Part shown: in pieces, positions 159 to 11,851 of the stretch | Layout of the letters: the number at the start of each line of letters is the position of its first letter | Numbering within the stretch: position 1 is the first letter of the stretch | Virus record (IMG/VR): IMGVR_UViG_3300020198_000009 | Span: 1 to 64,000 of that record | Strand: one strand, 5' to 3' | Source of the DNA: a virus | Length of the DNA stretch: 64,000 nucleotides | Translations under genes and position numbers: made by a program | Notes under the pieces: model-generated | Databases searched by the model: none | What the model saw: the letters and a program-made list of their open reading frames with translations, nothing else | What the model was told of the DNA's origin: nothing

Positions 159-1658
159 TCAGTCGTCGTCTCCGTAGTCGTTGCTGGCCCTCTTGCGGCC
201 ACCCCATTCCTTGGTAAGCTTGGCCAGGAGCTTGAGGTGCTCGATGGGGAAAGCGTGATCGACGCCGAACATGCGATCGACGTCTTCCAGGAAGGCCCGG
301 TGGAATTCCTCGGAATGCCGCTCGCCGGCCCGGTGCGCCCGCTCGTGAAGCACCGTGGTGAGGGCCTTCGAGAACGGTCCTGCGAAGAGCTCCTCGTTGA
401 GGGCGACCTCGTTCTCCTCGTAAACGCCCAGGAGCTTGATGTCCGCCTCGTTGTGCGCCTTGAAGACCTTGATCCGGGGCATCGGGATGCCGGCCGACTG
501 GAAGGCCTGGGTCAGGAGCATTATTTTGCGGGCATGACGTGAGCCGTCGGTGATCTTGATGGCGCTCGACCGGGTGATGGCGTCACGCTTGGCCTCCAGG
601 GACTCGACCCCCTCGTCCCTGAGGATGTCGATGAGCATGGGATCGGTGACCTGCTGGACGCCGAAGCGCCCCAACTTGTCGTACTCCCACTGGTTGCCGG
701 GCTCGTGCTCGCTGTAGCTGAAGCGCTTGAGGTTGAAGCTGTTCACTTCGCGCCAGATCTCGTGCCAGTTGTCGAGCCGCTTGAAGGCGGCGATTTCCGG
801 ATTGCCGGCGTAGTGCTGGATCATGTCGCCGCCGCGCTTCTCGATGAGGGTGGTGAACACCGACTTGGGGCAGAACGGCGAGGCGTAGCACTTGTGGATG
901 GCCGTGACCAGGGCCTCGAAGGACAACGTCTTGCGGTCGCGATCGTTGTCCTCGGGAAGCTTGTCGTCAATGCGGTAGATGAAACTAAGCCGGTAGTCCT
1001 CGCCGCGGTCGATGCCGGCCAGGAAGACCCGGCCGTAGGGCTGCCCTTCCGGTCGGGCATAGATCCCCGCGCCGATCGGTTGGGCCAGGAAGGGATTCCG
1101 GGATCCCGCGAAGAACGTGTCGACCGAGATGTCGTAGAATTCGCCGATGCGATCGATCGACCCGACCAATTCGACCTCCGAGAAGGTCGGGCCGTCGTAG
1201 CGATCCTCCTTGCTGATCTCGAAATGCAGGATCTTGGTGGGATGGTCGTCGATGTCGCGCTCGACCCAGACGGCCCTGGCCTCCCACTGACCGTCATATC
1301 GACCGGACCGATAGGTCACGTCGATGCCGAAATCCCGCAGCAGGAGCAGGGCGCAGATCTTGAGGCCTTCGCCCTTGTCGCCAATCTGTCCCTGGACACC
1401 CGCCTTGTCGGTAGCACCCAGGATGAGCACGTAGTCCAGGTTGAAGGCCGAGGGCCCGCGAACCACCAGGCGCTTGCGCCCGTCCGGGAGGTATTCGCTC
1501 CGCACGACGATTTGCGCCAGGGGATCGGCGATCCCTAGCTTGGTCATACCATCGAAGAAATTCTGGTAGAGGTCGCGCTTGACCCAGGTCAAGCTGTTCT
1601 TGACCCCGTAGGTCTCGGCGATGTTGGCGCTTTCGCGCAAGGTGGTCACACCCGACAT
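159..1658 (-). CDS. GHKL (HATPase-like) ATPase fused to C-terminal HEXXH zincin metallopeptidase domain
   Basis: N-terminal LGATDK...IGDKGEGLK (GHKL lid motifs). C-terminal VLHERAH..HSEEF (SprT/WLM-like). RBS GGAGG before ATG 1658. Confidence 0.65.
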   Translation of the reverse strand: MSGVTTLRESANIAETYGVKNSLTWVKRDLYQNFFDGMTKLGIADPLAQIVVRSEYLPDGRKRLVVRGPSAFNLDYVLILGATDKAGVQGQIGDKGEGLKICALLLLRDFGIDVTYRSGRYDGQWEARAVWVERDIDDHPTKILHFEISKEDRYDGPTFSEVELVGSIDRIGEFYDISVDTFFAGSRNPFLAQPIGAGIYARPEGQPYGRVFLAGIDRGEDYRLSFIYRIDDKLPEDNDRDRKTLSFEALVTAIHKCYASPFCPKSVFTTLIEKRGGDMIQHYAGNPEIAAFKRLDNWHEIWREVNSFNLKRFSYSEHEPGNQWEYDKLGRFGVQQVTDPMLIDILRDEGVESLEAKRDAITRSSAIKITDGSRHARKIMLLTQAFQSAGIPMPRIKVFKAHNEADIKLLGVYEENEVALNEELFAGPFSKALTTVLHERAHRAGERHSEEFHRAFLEDVDRMFGVDHAFPIEHLKLLAKLTKEWGGRKRASNDYGDDD

Positions 1659-6961: not shown

Positions 6962-7233
6962 CAGTCGATCCGGTTCAGCAATTGCCAGACCGACATACCG
7001 GTCCCGAGCCGGCCGCCTACCCCCCGAATGGGCGACAGGAATATCGCCGCGACCGAGAGCGCCACCCTGATGGCATTCTTCTGGTCGGGAGACAAACTCC
7101 TAAACGCCTTGGTGACGGTCATACCGGCCGCCACCAGATTTTCCAGGGCGTCGACTGCGCCCTTCACTACGGGTTCCCAGTCCGTTCGCCGCACGCGGCT
7201 GACGAATGAGACCAGGTTGCTCCTCATGCTCAT
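6961..7233 (-). CDS. Hypothetical protein (possible membrane association)
   Basis: MSMRSNLVSF...; RBS AGGAGG. Confidence 0.55.
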   Translation of the reverse strand: MSMRSNLVSFVSRVRRTDWEPVVKGAVDALENLVAAGMTVTKAFRSLSPDQKNAIRVALSVAAIFLSPIRGVGGRLGTGMSVWQLLNRID

Positions 7234-7269
7234 GGGCAATCCTCCTGTGGGGTGTCTTGATGGAGAGAC

Positions 7270-7800
7270 GTGGAAAACCGCCCGCTGATCGGGAGGGGCT
7301 GGCCCCGGGCACCTAAAATCGAACCAGCACATCCGCCACGGATAACCCGCGCCGGCACGAGGCACCAGACGAGACCCGAAGGTCGTCAGGTGCCCCGCAC
7401 CGGCGCGGGACCCGAGAAGGAGGTGCCGGTCCTTGTGATTGCTGGGAAGTTACCAGCCCGGACGCCCTTGGCTGCCGTGAACGGGATGGGTTGCCAATCC
7501 CATCCCGCAGCACGCCTCCGGCGTCCGGTGACTGTCATTGCGGCGGGGTTCAAGCGCTCCAGGCTGTGGGCCCACCTGGAGACGGGCGGTCGTCATCCGC
7601 TCTCGCTAACCCCTTCGGCGGGTCGGGGCCCGCTATGCAATTCTGGGCGAACCGTCGCCCAGGAGGGGCGCCCCGTTCTTGCCACGGGGCCACAGCGCGC
7701 CCGCCAGTCGGGAACCGGCTGGGTGCGCGTCGTGAGACGCCACGAATCTCTCGCCATAACCGCAGGTTTGGCGGGAGAGGTTCAACGGCCGCCGGGATCA
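7270..7800. ncRNA. Candidate large structured non-coding element (about 530 nt, more than 10 hairpins)
   Basis: No credible CDS. Stems include cccgcgccgg/ccggcgcggg, ccggacgcc/ggcgtccgg, cgggatggg/cccatcccg, ctgggcga/tcgcccag, gccccgt/acggggc, tctctcgcca/tggcgggaga. Confidence 0.5.
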
Positions 7801-8705: not shown

Positions 8706-8909
8706 GTAGCACCTCCGTGGGCCGCCCCCTGTAAGGGCGGCAGACTTGACCGGGCCCCCAGCGCGTCCCATCCACGGCCCCCGAGGGGACCATGGCTAGA
8801 GGACCGACCCTTACGGCTCAGGCTGCAACCATTCCTGGTCTGTGCCGAGCCTCGGGGGCCGTTTGCCCTGGGGCGGGGAAACTTGCGAGAACCCAAAGGG
8901 GTTCTCAAA

Positions 8910-8925
8910 GATATTTAACAGAAAA
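8910..8925 (-). promoter_or_regulatory. Candidate early promoter motif TTTTCnGnTAAATATC (copy 2)
   Basis: 14/16 identical to 12226-12241; AT-rich, intergenic, oriented into the minus-strand genes. Confidence 0.4.
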
Positions 8926-8936
8926 CGCCGCTACCT

Positions 8937-9233
8937 TTACGGGTCGCAGCGGACCATTTCGGCGGCCACCTGGTCCCGGGCGAGAGCGTCCGACGCCGCC
9001 CACTCGGGAACCCGGTTCTCCCGGACGGCCTCCTTGCAGAGGGTCTTCCGGGTCACGAAGAGCACCGCCATCTCCTCGCGGGCACAGGAATACTCGTCGT
9101 AGGCAGCCTGGGCCAGCGCCCAGGCGCCTGACGACCTGGCATCGGACTCGGCGGTTTCGTAAGCCAGGCGCGCCAGCCTGACCCACCACCAGGTCCGGTG
9201 AAATAGCGTCAAGAACTCCAGGTAGTCCTTCAC
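8937..9233 (-). CDS. Hypothetical protein
   Basis: GTG start overlapping the upstream stop (GTGA); VKDYLEFLTLFHRTWWW... Confidence 0.55.
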   Translation of the reverse strand: MKDYLEFLTLFHRTWWWVRLARLAYETAESDARSSGAWALAQAAYDEYSCAREEMAVLFVTRKTLCKEAVRENRVPEWAASDALARDQVAAEMVRCDP

Positions 9234-9640
9234 GCGCCGCGGCCCCCCCGCGGGGCCTGGTAGTGCCGCCGGCGCTCGGCCAGCTGCGCGCGGATGAGCG
9301 CGCGCAGCCGATCCGCGTGATACCCGAGCCGGTCGGCCCACCAGGCCAACGAGCCCGGGGCCGCCCCTGTGGCGCCGAGCCAGGCCCACGTCTCTCCCCG
9401 GTCGCTCCGGAGGTCGGCGATGGCCTGCCGGACGACCGCCCAGGCGATCGTCCGCTCGGCGCCGGCGGCCAGATCGAGGGGCCGGCCGACCGTGGCCCTG
9501 GCCCGGTCGAGGACCTCCATGGCCTCGACCAGGTGGGCCTGGGCGTAGTCCCGGCCCTCGGGGGTGCGGCAACGCCGCGCGGCCCGTCGCCAGAAGGCGA
9601 CCAGGCGCTCGGCGTTGCCGAGGTAGAGCAGGTCCTGCAT
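9230..9640 (-). CDS. Hypothetical protein
   Basis: RBS AAAGGAGG directly after the tRNA-like RNAs. Confidence 0.6.
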   Translation of the reverse strand: MQDLLYLGNAERLVAFWRRAARRCRTPEGRDYAQAHLVEAMEVLDRARATVGRPLDLAAGAERTIAWAVVRQAIADLRSDRGETWAWLGATGAAPGSLAWWADRLGYHADRLRALIRAQLAERRRHYQAPRGGRGA

Positions 9641-9662
9641 GTGGACCTCCTTTCGACCTTAG

Positions 9663-9740
9663 TGGAACCACCGGGACTCGAACCCGGCTCCCTCCTGTGC
9701 GCTTTGGCTTTCGGGAGGGAGGGCACCTGCGACTGGTCCC
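9663..9740 (-). ncRNA. tRNA-like RNA with alanine acceptor identity, no D-stem and no canonical anticodon loop
   Basis: GGGACCA/TGGTTCC acceptor stem (G3:U70), discriminator A73, T-arm CCGGG-TTCGAGT-CCCGG, 8-bp stem CTCCCTCC/GGAGGGAG closing an 18-nt loop. CCA not encoded. Confidence 0.7.
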
Positions 9741-9741
9741 A

Positions 9742-9806
9742 TGGTGGAGCCGGCGGGTACTGACCCCGCGTGCCAGGCTTGCGCCCGGTCGACCCTTTAC
9801 GGCCCC
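9742..9806 (-). ncRNA. Minimal tmRNA-like RNA (tRNA-like domain only, 65 nt)
   Basis: GGGGCCG TAAAGGGTCGA CCGGGC GCAA GCCTGG CAC GCGGG GTCAGTA CCCGC CGGCTCC ACCA. G3:U70, A73, encoded CCA, ssrA-type stemless D-loop ending TCGAC, P2 capped by a GNRA loop. GATAAT box 5 nt upstream. Confidence 0.78.
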
Positions 9807-9844
9807 ATGAAATTATCGCCAGGGTGGCGCCTGGACTTCCAGTG

Positions 9845-10322
9845 ATGGGGACGGGCTGCTCATACTGCCCGTCGCTCCCGGATCCCGGCTTGGTGTTTTG
9901 GGCCGCAAACCACAATCGGCCTCTTGCACCGGGAGCAAAACTTGGCGAGTGCCCGTCAGCGCTGCACGCAGTACCCCTGGAAACGGGGCAGATCCCGAAG
10001 GACCAGGACGGGTTTCTCGCCAGTATGGAGTATACCAGCCGACCCGGGGTTGGGTCAAGCTGGGGTTGCCCCTCGGCCTCCGGCCCCGGGCCGGGGGTCA
10101 TCGGACGCGACCGAAATCCCGGCGCCTCCCGTCCTCTGCGCCTGCCGGTCTATGGCTGCGCCGACGAGGACGGGAGTCGCCGAAAAGCCCTCGCGCGCTG
10201 TGTCGATGTTGTCGTTACGCGAGATGCGAGGGCCCGGGGGAGATCCCACCCGAGCGCCTGCTGCATGCTGCGCCGAGTGGGTGGGATCTCCTCGTAGCTG
10301 GCATCAGATCTCGATGCCAGCC
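9845..10322. ncRNA. Candidate large structured non-coding element (about 480 nt)
   Basis: Stems gacgggc/gcccgtc, gctcccgg/ccgggagc, tggcgag/ctcgcca, ctcccgtcctc/gaggacgggag, gccctcgc/gcgagggc, ggagatcccaccc/gggtgggatctcc, gctggcatc/gatgccagc. Confidence 0.5.
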
Positions 10323-10422
10323 TCCTCATGACTACCCCTTCCTGTCCCTCGCGGGACGGTCGCGGCGCAGTGGCGGCGGCTCGATGCCAGGCCTTGCGCC
10401 AGGTGGTGGTGGTGGGGGGGGG

Positions 10423-10782
10423 CTACTCGGCGCGGTAGGTGGGGTCCCCCGGCCTCTGGTTGCAGAGGCCCGGGGGCACCCCGGCCGCCTGCGCCACGGC
10501 CGACGCGGCCAGGGCGGCGTCCAGCGCCACCTGCGGGCCGACCGTGTCCCGCGCCACGCGGGCGGCCGCCCGCGCGGACAAACCCTTCGTGGCGGCCTCC
10601 CACGCCTGCCACGACGCCTCCTCGGCGTCGTTAGCGGCGGCGAAGGCCGCCCGTGCCGCCTCGACGAGCACTACTTGCGTCGCGCTCAGGACGATGCGCC
10701 CGTCGGGCGCTATGGTCCGGGGCCGTGGGTCGTCGAGGTGGCGGCCGGACCCGCCGCCGATGTGCTCCCAGATCCCGCTCAT
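10423..10782 (-). CDS. Hypothetical Ala-rich protein
   Basis: RBS AAAGGAGG before ATG. Confidence 0.55.
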   Translation of the reverse strand: MSGIWEHIGGGSGRHLDDPRPRTIAPDGRIVLSATQVVLVEAARAAFAAANDAEEASWQAWEAATKGLSARAAARVARDTVGPQVALDAALAASAVAQAAGVPPGLCNQRPGDPTYRAE

Positions 10783-11614: not shown

Positions 11615-11851
11615 TTTACACCTCCTGGAAAGGGAGGCCGGATGCCCAAAGGGCCGGCACCTGTCGATCGGCGCGGCCACCAAGATGGTGTAGCCGTCCG
11701 ACCTACCGGGTGCCGTTGCTCGGCCCATCTTGACGAAATGGCGGCAGCGGGGCATTGAACCCCGCTCGGGACCTTCAGACGACCGCGACACCCCGGAGGG
11801 GCTCGTTTGATCGCCTCTATGCCAGGCTGACACCCGGCATGTCCTTCAGCC

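Follow-up and report, generated by a model that had tools for sequence, protein, structure and literature searches.

What kind of RNA follows a miniature transfer-messenger RNA (tmRNA) gene in a lake-water virus, and why would a phage carry two such RNAs side by side? The question is raised by IMG/VR virus record IMGVR_UViG_3300020198_000009 (80,429 bp, approximately 65% G+C, 39% complete according to CheckV), of which the first 64 kb were analysed as one stretch (hereafter, the window). On the minus strand, a 65-nt mini-tmRNA (hereafter, the first RNA) is followed by a 78-nt element at 9740–9663 (hereafter, the second RNA). An initial annotation, made from the nucleotides alone, had described this element as an alanine-identity tRNA mimic and had named the open reading frame (ORF) behind it, 9230–9640, as a possible partner. 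Here, we report that the second RNA is very probably a divergent tag-less mini-tmRNA belonging to a phage family typified by the element of Mycobacterium phage DS6A, in a subgroup recognisable by the loop AAAGCC-RAW-GYGC.

Parts and fold of the second RNA

The geometry proposed at the outset was borne out on the minus strand (Table 1). The second RNA starts 1 nt past the CCA of the first (CCA, 9744–9742; U, 9741; 5′ G, 9740), and its acceptor GGGACCA/UGGUUCC carries G3:U70 and the discriminator A73 (A9663). The perfect T-arm, the missing D-stem and the 8-bp stem with an 18-nt loop were found base for base in the sequence and by RNAfold. All 20 helix pairs are intact, and the minimum free energy (MFE) structure and the centroid are both the described fold (−34.6 kcal/mol, z = −2.0). 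The D-loop analogue retains the GG-U of the family, aligned to the conserved G-G-U columns, and lacks UCGAC. The 18-nt loop can be parsed as CG-AAAGCC-AAAG-CGCACA, and helix 2 adjoins the T-stem directly, with no GGAC-type linker between them. An mRNA-like domain is missing: the RNA has 78 nt in all, no tag frame and no pseudoknots, and the frame from the loop GCC stays open, stop-free, to its 3′ end. Having neither an anticodon nor a tag frame, the second RNA can neither decode nor tag. This agrees with the earlier description of a non-decoding RNA with alanine identity, laid out like a unit of a tRNA operon; the U at −1 likely marks an RNase P site.

Standard annotation tools

Rfam at gathering thresholds gave zero matches in the window. 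In permissive searches, for which the tmRNA families RF00023, RF01849–51 and RF04321 were considered, the first RNA matched RF00023 end to end with a 312-nt interior missing (29.5 bits, E = 5.7e-10). The tRNA model RF00005 had no match at E ≤ 1 across the whole 80-kb record. The sole Rfam match of the second RNA was mascRNA (RF01684; 29.6 bits against a cut-off of 42.5), and its likeness to mascRNA/menRNA is one of shape only. The initial annotation had expected ARAGORN to return a pseudo or undetermined tRNA; the program indeed called no tRNA for the second RNA, but it fused both RNAs into one 145-nt "tmRNA" (9806–9662) with a 31-residue tag AGSTMGPVAGALPPESQSAQEGAGFESRWFH. Through a spurious alignment, the Rfam model tmRNA_permuted scored 30.5 bits on the pair (cut-off, 47). 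Furthermore, ARAGORN was silent in 59 of the 100 regions tested, that of the window included in the test. Because ARAGORN and Rfam mis-annotate or miss tag-less mini-tmRNA genes, counts of phage "tmRNAs" fall short, and part of the calls made, the 145-nt one in the window among them, are artefactual.

A family of phage mini-tmRNAs

We scanned IMG/VR for a complete tmRNA-type head squeezed into 53–93 nt. Of the 99 loci retrieved, a portion correspond to genes for tRNA-Ala or to the 3′ ends of full tmRNAs, and approximately 60 are RNAs of 60–88 nt built like a mini-tmRNA: acceptor, GGUUUCGAC, short helix, small inner hairpin, GGAC, T-arm, acceptor and ACCA. Many of their loops read UAAAGCC...G(C/U)GC, like that of the second RNA. 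A second IMG/VR scan was anchored on this loop, with the acceptor, UCGAC and CCA left free, and yielded 28 further RNAs of 75–80 nt (22 distinct), all with G3:U70. The encoded CCA is absent in 11 of these 22 distinct members. The 14-nt loop motif of the second RNA, AAAGCCAAAGCGCA, is identical in five loci (L104, L114, L118, L123 and L127). Our literature search found no paper on this AAAGCC-RAW-GYGC loop subfamily.

A covariance model, R1, was built from 10 AAAGCC-subfamily RNAs of unrelated phages (a clean alignment with nine covarying pairs), none of them from the window. R1 found the second RNA over its full length (model positions 1–77 of 77; 49.1 bits, approximate E = 1.4e-11; 64-kb window, filters off). 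The next unrelated match in the window reached 12 bits. Other mini-tmRNAs scored 44–92 bits (126 loci searched), true tRNA-Ala 24–34 bits, 3′ ends of full-length tmRNAs 25–41 bits, and the "tRNA-like domain (TLD) only" tmRNA of phage DS6A (JN698994, 28478–28557) 51.4 bits. In an alignment of 69 members, 99.2% of the cells were paired and 13 of 18 pairs covaried, values that none of 500 shuffles reached in either respect; slid controls gave 48–57% pairing. G3:U70 was present in 69 of 69.

By the R1 score and this alignment, the second RNA is homologous to the tag-less mini-tmRNAs and is not a decayed tRNA. What had been called a tRNA mimic is accordingly retained as an Ala-type non-decoding RNA and given up as a separate kind. 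A normal cloverleaf in the homologues, which had been named as one way to overturn the annotation, was not observed: the relatives have no cloverleaf.

In several phage records (L037/L038/L053/L069, L047, L072/L096 and L056), a single mini-tmRNA is followed 3–5 nt on by an ordinary tRNA gene, for His, for Asp or with an 8-nt anticodon loop. This indicates that mini-tmRNAs are often units of tRNA operons.

Two different tmRNA heads

Compared with the columns that are at least 85% conserved among 67 other members, the second RNA departs at two points only. One comprises two acceptor pairs, each with a compensating change; the other is the UCGAC/GGAC junction, in its 5′ half. Counted in register from the T-stem, the A.G, G.A and C.C of the family become C:G, U:A and C:G; the tandem G.A junction, beside which SmpB binds, is thereby replaced by Watson–Crick pairs, and helix 2 runs regularly up to the T-stem. 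According to reviews, the tmRNA head accommodates SmpB at its elbow and D-loop, and binding of SmpB requires contacts between the D-loop and the T-loop (PMC3968760). We infer that loss of the junction would weaken SmpB binding to the second RNA. In the Rfam alpha_tmRNA consensus, gUAAAGgc lies seven bases after GAC, which is the spacing of AAAGCC in the mini-tmRNAs; from this match, the loop of the second RNA may be read as a stub of the next tmRNA helix. What the initial annotation regarded as a stem replacing the anticodon arm is tmRNA helix 2, and its A-rich loop the conserved helix-2 motif.

The first RNA departs elsewhere. Its helix 2 is closed by GCAA, its UCGAC/GCAC junction is intact, and only three T-loop positions (GUCAGUA) differ from the conserved columns, the otherwise invariant T54 and A58 both being G. 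This T-loop is of the alphaproteobacterial tmRNA type (Rfam alpha_tmRNA consensus, GGCgGUA), which suggests that the host is probably an alphaproteobacterium. In addition, over 30 bases of its 3′ part, 28 are shared with the acceptor piece of the two-piece tmRNA in another phage record, L285. That record (IMGVR_UViG_3300047560_000667) encodes at 7120–7470 a complete alphaproteobacterial two-piece tmRNA, the tag of which starts with ANDNF, and scores 115 bits with RF01849 and 110 bits with RF04321. In two lake metagenomes, short contigs with a depth of 36–74 match, with 1–4 differences, only the 31 bases 9741–9771, where the first RNA has its T-arm, acceptor and CCA; these contigs probably derive from tmRNA genes of abundant bacteria, possibly of the host lineage.

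On these features, the two RNAs do not appear redundant. The first reads as a copy of an alphaproteobacterial head, and the second has a canonical T-loop with the junction turned into a plain helix. Given these contrasting T-loop and junction features, the first would be expected to engage SmpB and the second to do so weakly or not at all; the second RNA would then act on AlaRS (the alanyl-tRNA synthetase), EF-Tu, the ribosome or another partner. The pair therefore forms a natural experiment on what alanylation, binding of SmpB and EF-Tu, ribosome entry and inhibition of tagging each require of a tmRNA head.

Recurrence of the pair

The first and second RNAs are 41% identical to each other, too little for a recent duplication, and each is 57–62% identical to a different subfamily. 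Exactly one mini-tmRNA was found in each of 40 of 40 other phage records (R1, E ≤ 1e-6). A loose tandem pattern retrieved real pairs solely in L156 and L164, two near-identical AT-rich metagenome contigs, its other matches being mostly chance occurrences in coding DNA. These contigs carry the same two-RNA unit, with order and variant features both as in the window (Table 1), the two RNAs being separated by a 2-nt spacer. Their second RNA has the D-loop GCUUGGUGC, ending in GGUGC as in the window, and no UCGAC; its 9-bp helix 2 adjoins the T-stem and closes the loop UUAAAGCCGAUGUGCCG (motif AAAGCCGAUGUGC).

We compared the second RNAs of the window and L164 by hand. Helix 2 is wholly different in sequence, yet still fully paired; three of five T-stem pairs and two acceptor pairs are changed on both sides with pairing kept; and the single-stranded GGUGC, AAAGCC-RAW-GYGC and UUCGANU are conserved. 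Helices that change and stay paired, together with single strands that are kept, point to selection on a functional RNA and indicate that the pair is a conserved two-RNA module under selection, with two lineages known.

When metagenome and genome contigs were scanned with exact patterns, no close relatives of the second RNA emerged, and a scan of IMG/VR for the GGUGC variant gave two chance matches only. The one locus returned by a further pattern scan for pairs, L285, holds a genuine two-piece tmRNA instead of a pair. As a weak look-alike, contig L196 (169–315, minus strand) has a tandem of two tRNA-like units with R1 scores of 17–20 bits, the second of which has the AAAGCC loop but G3:C70, and so lacks alanine identity.

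Proposed role and rival explanations

We propose the following course of events. The promoter upstream of the pair would drive a joint transcript of the first RNA, the second RNA and the 136-aa ORF, as the layout suggests. RNase P would cut before G9740 and leave the first RNA with a 1-nt trailer; U9741 probably serves twice, at −1 of the second RNA's predicted RNase P site and as the trailer at the 3′ end of the first. RNase Z-type cleavage behind A9663 would be followed by CCA addition, the CCA-less half of the subfamily offering a parallel, and AlaRS would charge the RNA through G3:U70 and A73, according to established identity rules. Finally, both RNAs would compete with host tmRNA, such that tagging is blocked or ribosomes are rescued tag-free, by analogy with an engineered TLD-only RNA. 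An expressed, chargeable second RNA seems reasonably probable to us, and we would give about the same credence to the explanation as a whole, short of its last step. That the pair interferes with trans-translation is a tentative proposal, which we consider possible but somewhat doubtful. The pair also opens the question of whether host ribosome rescue is turned off, or substituted, by phages.

Several observations weigh against this explanation. No match of the tmRNA clan was obtained on 9663–9740 even at E ≤ 10 in a 161-nt search, and the R1 E-values are rough owing to a shortened calibration. The bases 3′ of A9663 read CUA, not CCA. In UCGAC, the G is conserved in 100% and the A in 96% of the 67 other members, and both are changed in the second RNA; with the invariant G missing, SmpB binding and any SmpB-dependent mechanism become doubtful. 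The pair is seen in one other lineage only, represented by two near-identical contigs. SmpB, PTH2 and Pth are not encoded in the 80-kb record (39% complete), and the context thus gives no functional hint.

In a different assignment, the first RNA alone would handle SmpB, and the second, with alanine identity and a tRNA-like elbow retained but the SmpB platform lost, would have an SmpB-independent role, as a decoy or sponge for host factors or defence proteins that recognise tRNA/tmRNA shapes (SmpB-like-domain systems or t(m)RNA-binding nucleases), as an alanyl donor, or as a sink for AlaRS or EF-Tu. In both lineages with the pair the G.A junction has become Watson–Crick, the second RNA always has a neighbour that retains the junction, which hints at divided tasks, and the conserved sequence of the AAAGCC loop suggests that it has a specific ligand. 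Defence systems with SmpB-like OB folds (CoCoNuTs; PMC10542128) and a phage anti-CRISPR acting through t(m)RNA fragments (PMC11662646) also fit. However, no defence or counter-defence genes are linked to the element, the AAAGCC loop is common to 22 distinct members that keep the junction and is thus not specific to this variant, and it is we who infer that losing the junction abolishes SmpB binding. On balance, we consider this assignment unlikely. An equally speculative elaboration is a conserved two-component module of alphaproteobacterial phages, in which the first RNA, as a faithful copy of the host tmRNA head, would capture SmpB. The second, a junction-less and SmpB-independent alanyl-tRNA mimic, would address another target through its conserved AAAGCC loop, either ribosomal or belonging to a defence or quality-control pathway of the host. 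If true, the second RNA would represent a new functional class of non-decoding aminoacyl-RNA, beyond a tmRNA competitor.

The remaining explanations deny the second RNA either a function or an independent existence. The fold could be mere processing punctuation, an RNase P/RNase Z signal that frees the first RNA and the 5′ end of the ORF mRNA, with a functionless excised RNA. The element does lie between an RNA gene and an ORF (gaps of 1 and 22 nt), a Shine–Dalgarno sequence and ORF lie within 45 nt of approximately 15 of 66 family members, and mascRNA, its best Rfam look-alike albeit below cut-off, is a processing-type tRNA mimic. Yet most family members have no close downstream ORF, the second RNA of L164 is followed by a non-coding, promoter-like stretch, and punctuation needs only the acceptor and T-arm, whereas G3:U70, the D-loop GG-U and the 14-nt loop sequence are conserved too; we regard it as improbable. 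A decaying extra copy of a mini-tmRNA or tRNA, out of selection, is more improbable still. One copy suffices in 40 of 40 other phage records, and the second RNA lacks the family-invariant junction bases and an encoded CCA, but half of its subfamily has no encoded CCA either. Its helices are all perfect, the junction change is coordinated and creates three new Watson–Crick pairs, the same derived features recur in L156/L164 among many compensatory differences, and no tRNA model matches. Least credible, to the point of being very improbable, is a single 145-nt tmRNA or a permuted two-piece tmRNA, as the ARAGORN call and the tmRNA_permuted score would have it. GGGGCCG can pair with UGGUUCC in an isoenergetic joint fold (−68.7 vs −68.6 kcal/mol), but each half is complete and scores end to end alone (R1), pseudoknots are lacking, and the "tag" is read across structural parts, namely the first acceptor strand, then helix 2 and the T-arm, and the acceptor of the second RNA. 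The permuted alignment places the start of the coding piece on the second T-arm, whereas the genuine phage case, L285, scores 115 and 110 bits and has a proper ANDNF... tag.

Locus layout and neighbouring genes

The minus strand reads, in order, promoter, leader, first mini-tmRNA, U, the 78-nt element, 22 nt including GGAGG, and the ATG of the ORF (Table 1). The promoter is the sole promoter-like site in 8800–10500, and no terminator-like sites were found between it and the ORF; it likely starts a transcript holding both RNAs and the ORF, which is probably co-transcribed with them. The initial 80 nt of the leader form a closed multi-hairpin domain, and the leader has neither an Rfam match nor a convincing ORF. 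A search for an antisense partner RNA found no inverted repeats involving 9663–9806 within ±600 nt.

Table 1. Predicted features of the two-RNA locus and of the corresponding pair in contig L164
Feature	Position	Strand	Evidence or score
Sigma-70-type promoter, TTGACC-18 nt-TATACT with TG extension	10058–10029	minus	10/12 matches; 0.0 expected (shuffles)
Structured leader, ~216 nt, 5′ of first RNA	9807–10022	minus	MFE −94.6 kcal/mol, z = −2.58
First mini-tmRNA, 65 nt, tRNA-like domain only, CCA encoded	9806–9742	minus	RF00023, R1
First mini-tmRNA, R1 match	9806–9745	minus	R1 39.6 bits
Single U spacer	9741	minus	sequence
Putative second tag-less mini-tmRNA, 78 nt including discriminator A9663, CCA not encoded	9740–9663	minus	R1, RNAfold
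Acceptor 5′ strand, GGGACCA	9740–9734	minus	pairs 7/7 with UGGUUCC (9670–9664)
Stem-less D-loop analogue, 12-nt single strand, GUCGCAGGUGCC	9733–9722	minus	sequence, RNAfold
Helix 2, 8 bp, CUCCCUCC/GGAGGGAG	9721–9714 with 9695–9688	minus	sequence, RNAfold
Helix-2 loop, 18 nt, CGAAAGCCAAAGCGCACA	9713–9696	minus	sequence, RNAfold
T-arm, CCGGG-UUCGAGU-CCCGG, canonical T-loop	9687–9671	minus	sequence, RNAfold, R1
Shine–Dalgarno GGAGG, 5 nt 5′ of ATG 9640	9650–9646	minus	sequence
ORF, 136 aa, co-oriented	9640–9230	minus	orphan
L164 first RNA, UCGAC/GGAC junction, T-loop GGCAGUA, CCA	942–1012		R1 43.5 bits
L164 second RNA	1018–1093		R1 54–55 bits (L156/L164)

The locus DNA is present in nine lake-water metagenome runs, and no RNA run is listed among the runs containing it. 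Contigs from four runs are identical over the locus where covered, with no population variation.

The ribosome-binding site of ORF 9230–9640 lies close behind the element, within the 22-nt gap, as first described, but the idea that its product is a partner of the pair found no support. The ORF has no match in Pfam or PHROG and no relatives in IMG/VR, and it matches only itself among 5.8 billion proteins. Behind 66 family members, the ORFs show no relation to it or, except in one near-identical contig pair, to one another. By these searches, it is an orphan and not a conserved partner. No related loci were found for the 487-aa neighbour, and a blastn comparison with 50,697 cultured phages was uninformative, matching only 36 nt of a tRNA-Asp T-arm.

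In L156, a PTH2 peptidyl-tRNA hydrolase (606–1010, minus strand; E = 1.2e-16) lies 2.2 kb downstream of the pair on the same strand. A link of PTH2 to the family was rejected, with one weak match in 40 family records and none in the record of the window. An attP remnant was likewise rejected because both RNAs have their own 5′ halves; a tyrosine integrase is not in the record. A weak third tRNA-like piece is located at 11739–11792 (to 11834) on the minus strand, just downstream of 37-bp repeats. It comprises a T-arm, CGGGG-UUCAAUG-CCCCG, then CUGCCGCC-A with a poor 5′ partner, scores 12.4–17.1 bits with R1 (E, 0.03–0.6), and may be a relic or a chance occurrence.

Comparison with known systems

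A tRNA-Ala gene shares with the second RNA G3:U70, A73, a 7-bp acceptor and a canonical T-arm, but has a D-stem, a 5-bp anticodon stem with a 7-nt loop, and an anticodon. The two-piece tmRNA of alphaproteobacteria (RF01849/RF04321) has features of both window RNAs, namely the T-loop type of the first (GNCAGUA vs GGCgGUA) and, after helix 2a, the UAAAG-gc of the second. However, it is permuted, in two pieces, and has pseudoknots and a tag, whereas each of the window RNAs consists of one piece without a tag, and the T-loop of the second is canonical. Moreover, a permuted tmRNA consists of an acceptor piece and then a coding piece with a resume codon, a tag frame and a stop, unlike the window, where each RNA has its own 5′ and 3′ acceptor strands.

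Closer parallels are tmRNA heads without a message. Plastid forms lacking a coding sequence (CDS-less; ~65 bp) and CDS-less mitochondrial tmRNA forms are discussed in PMC11915505, and an engineered TLD-only RNA (Mao et al. 2009, as cited in PMC4131195 and PMC11915505) is described as strongly inhibiting E. coli tmRNA, an effect that titration of SmpB may explain. This inhibition is the sole experimental hint on function. Like the window RNAs, all of these are tmRNA heads without a message; they differ in keeping the SmpB-binding region, and the organellar ones are the organelle's own tmRNA, not viral.

Published examples of tag-less tmRNA heads come from a single phage, DS6A, and from a small number of organelles. 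The "TLD only" (CDS-less) tmRNA of DS6A was reported by Hudson, Lau and Williams in 2014 (PMC4131195; PMC11915505), and its gene is unannotated in GenBank. It resembles the second RNA as a phage gene of ~80 nt comprising an acceptor that has G3:U70, a D-loop lacking a stem, a T-arm, a short helix 2, and an A-rich internal loop with a small hairpin, and in the absence of pseudoknots and a tag frame. Unlike the second RNA, it keeps UCGAC...GGCAC (the G.A junction), encodes its CCA and is present in one copy in the genome (R1), and its loop reads GAAAACC..., whereas that of the second RNA, itself the second of a pair, is of the AAAGCC type. The AAAGCC-RAW-GYGC subfamily (IMG/VR L101–L127, e.g., L104, L109, L116 and L124) shares with the second RNA its size of 75–80 nt, the order of parts, G3:U70, A73 and the identical 14-nt loop motif. 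In contrast to the second RNA, 22 of 22 members keep the G of UCG(A/C)C and a G-N-A-C linker of 3–4 nt, and there is one copy per record. The kind of RNA is thus known, and new here are the junction-less variant with the GGUGC D-loop and its fixed position after a host-type copy.

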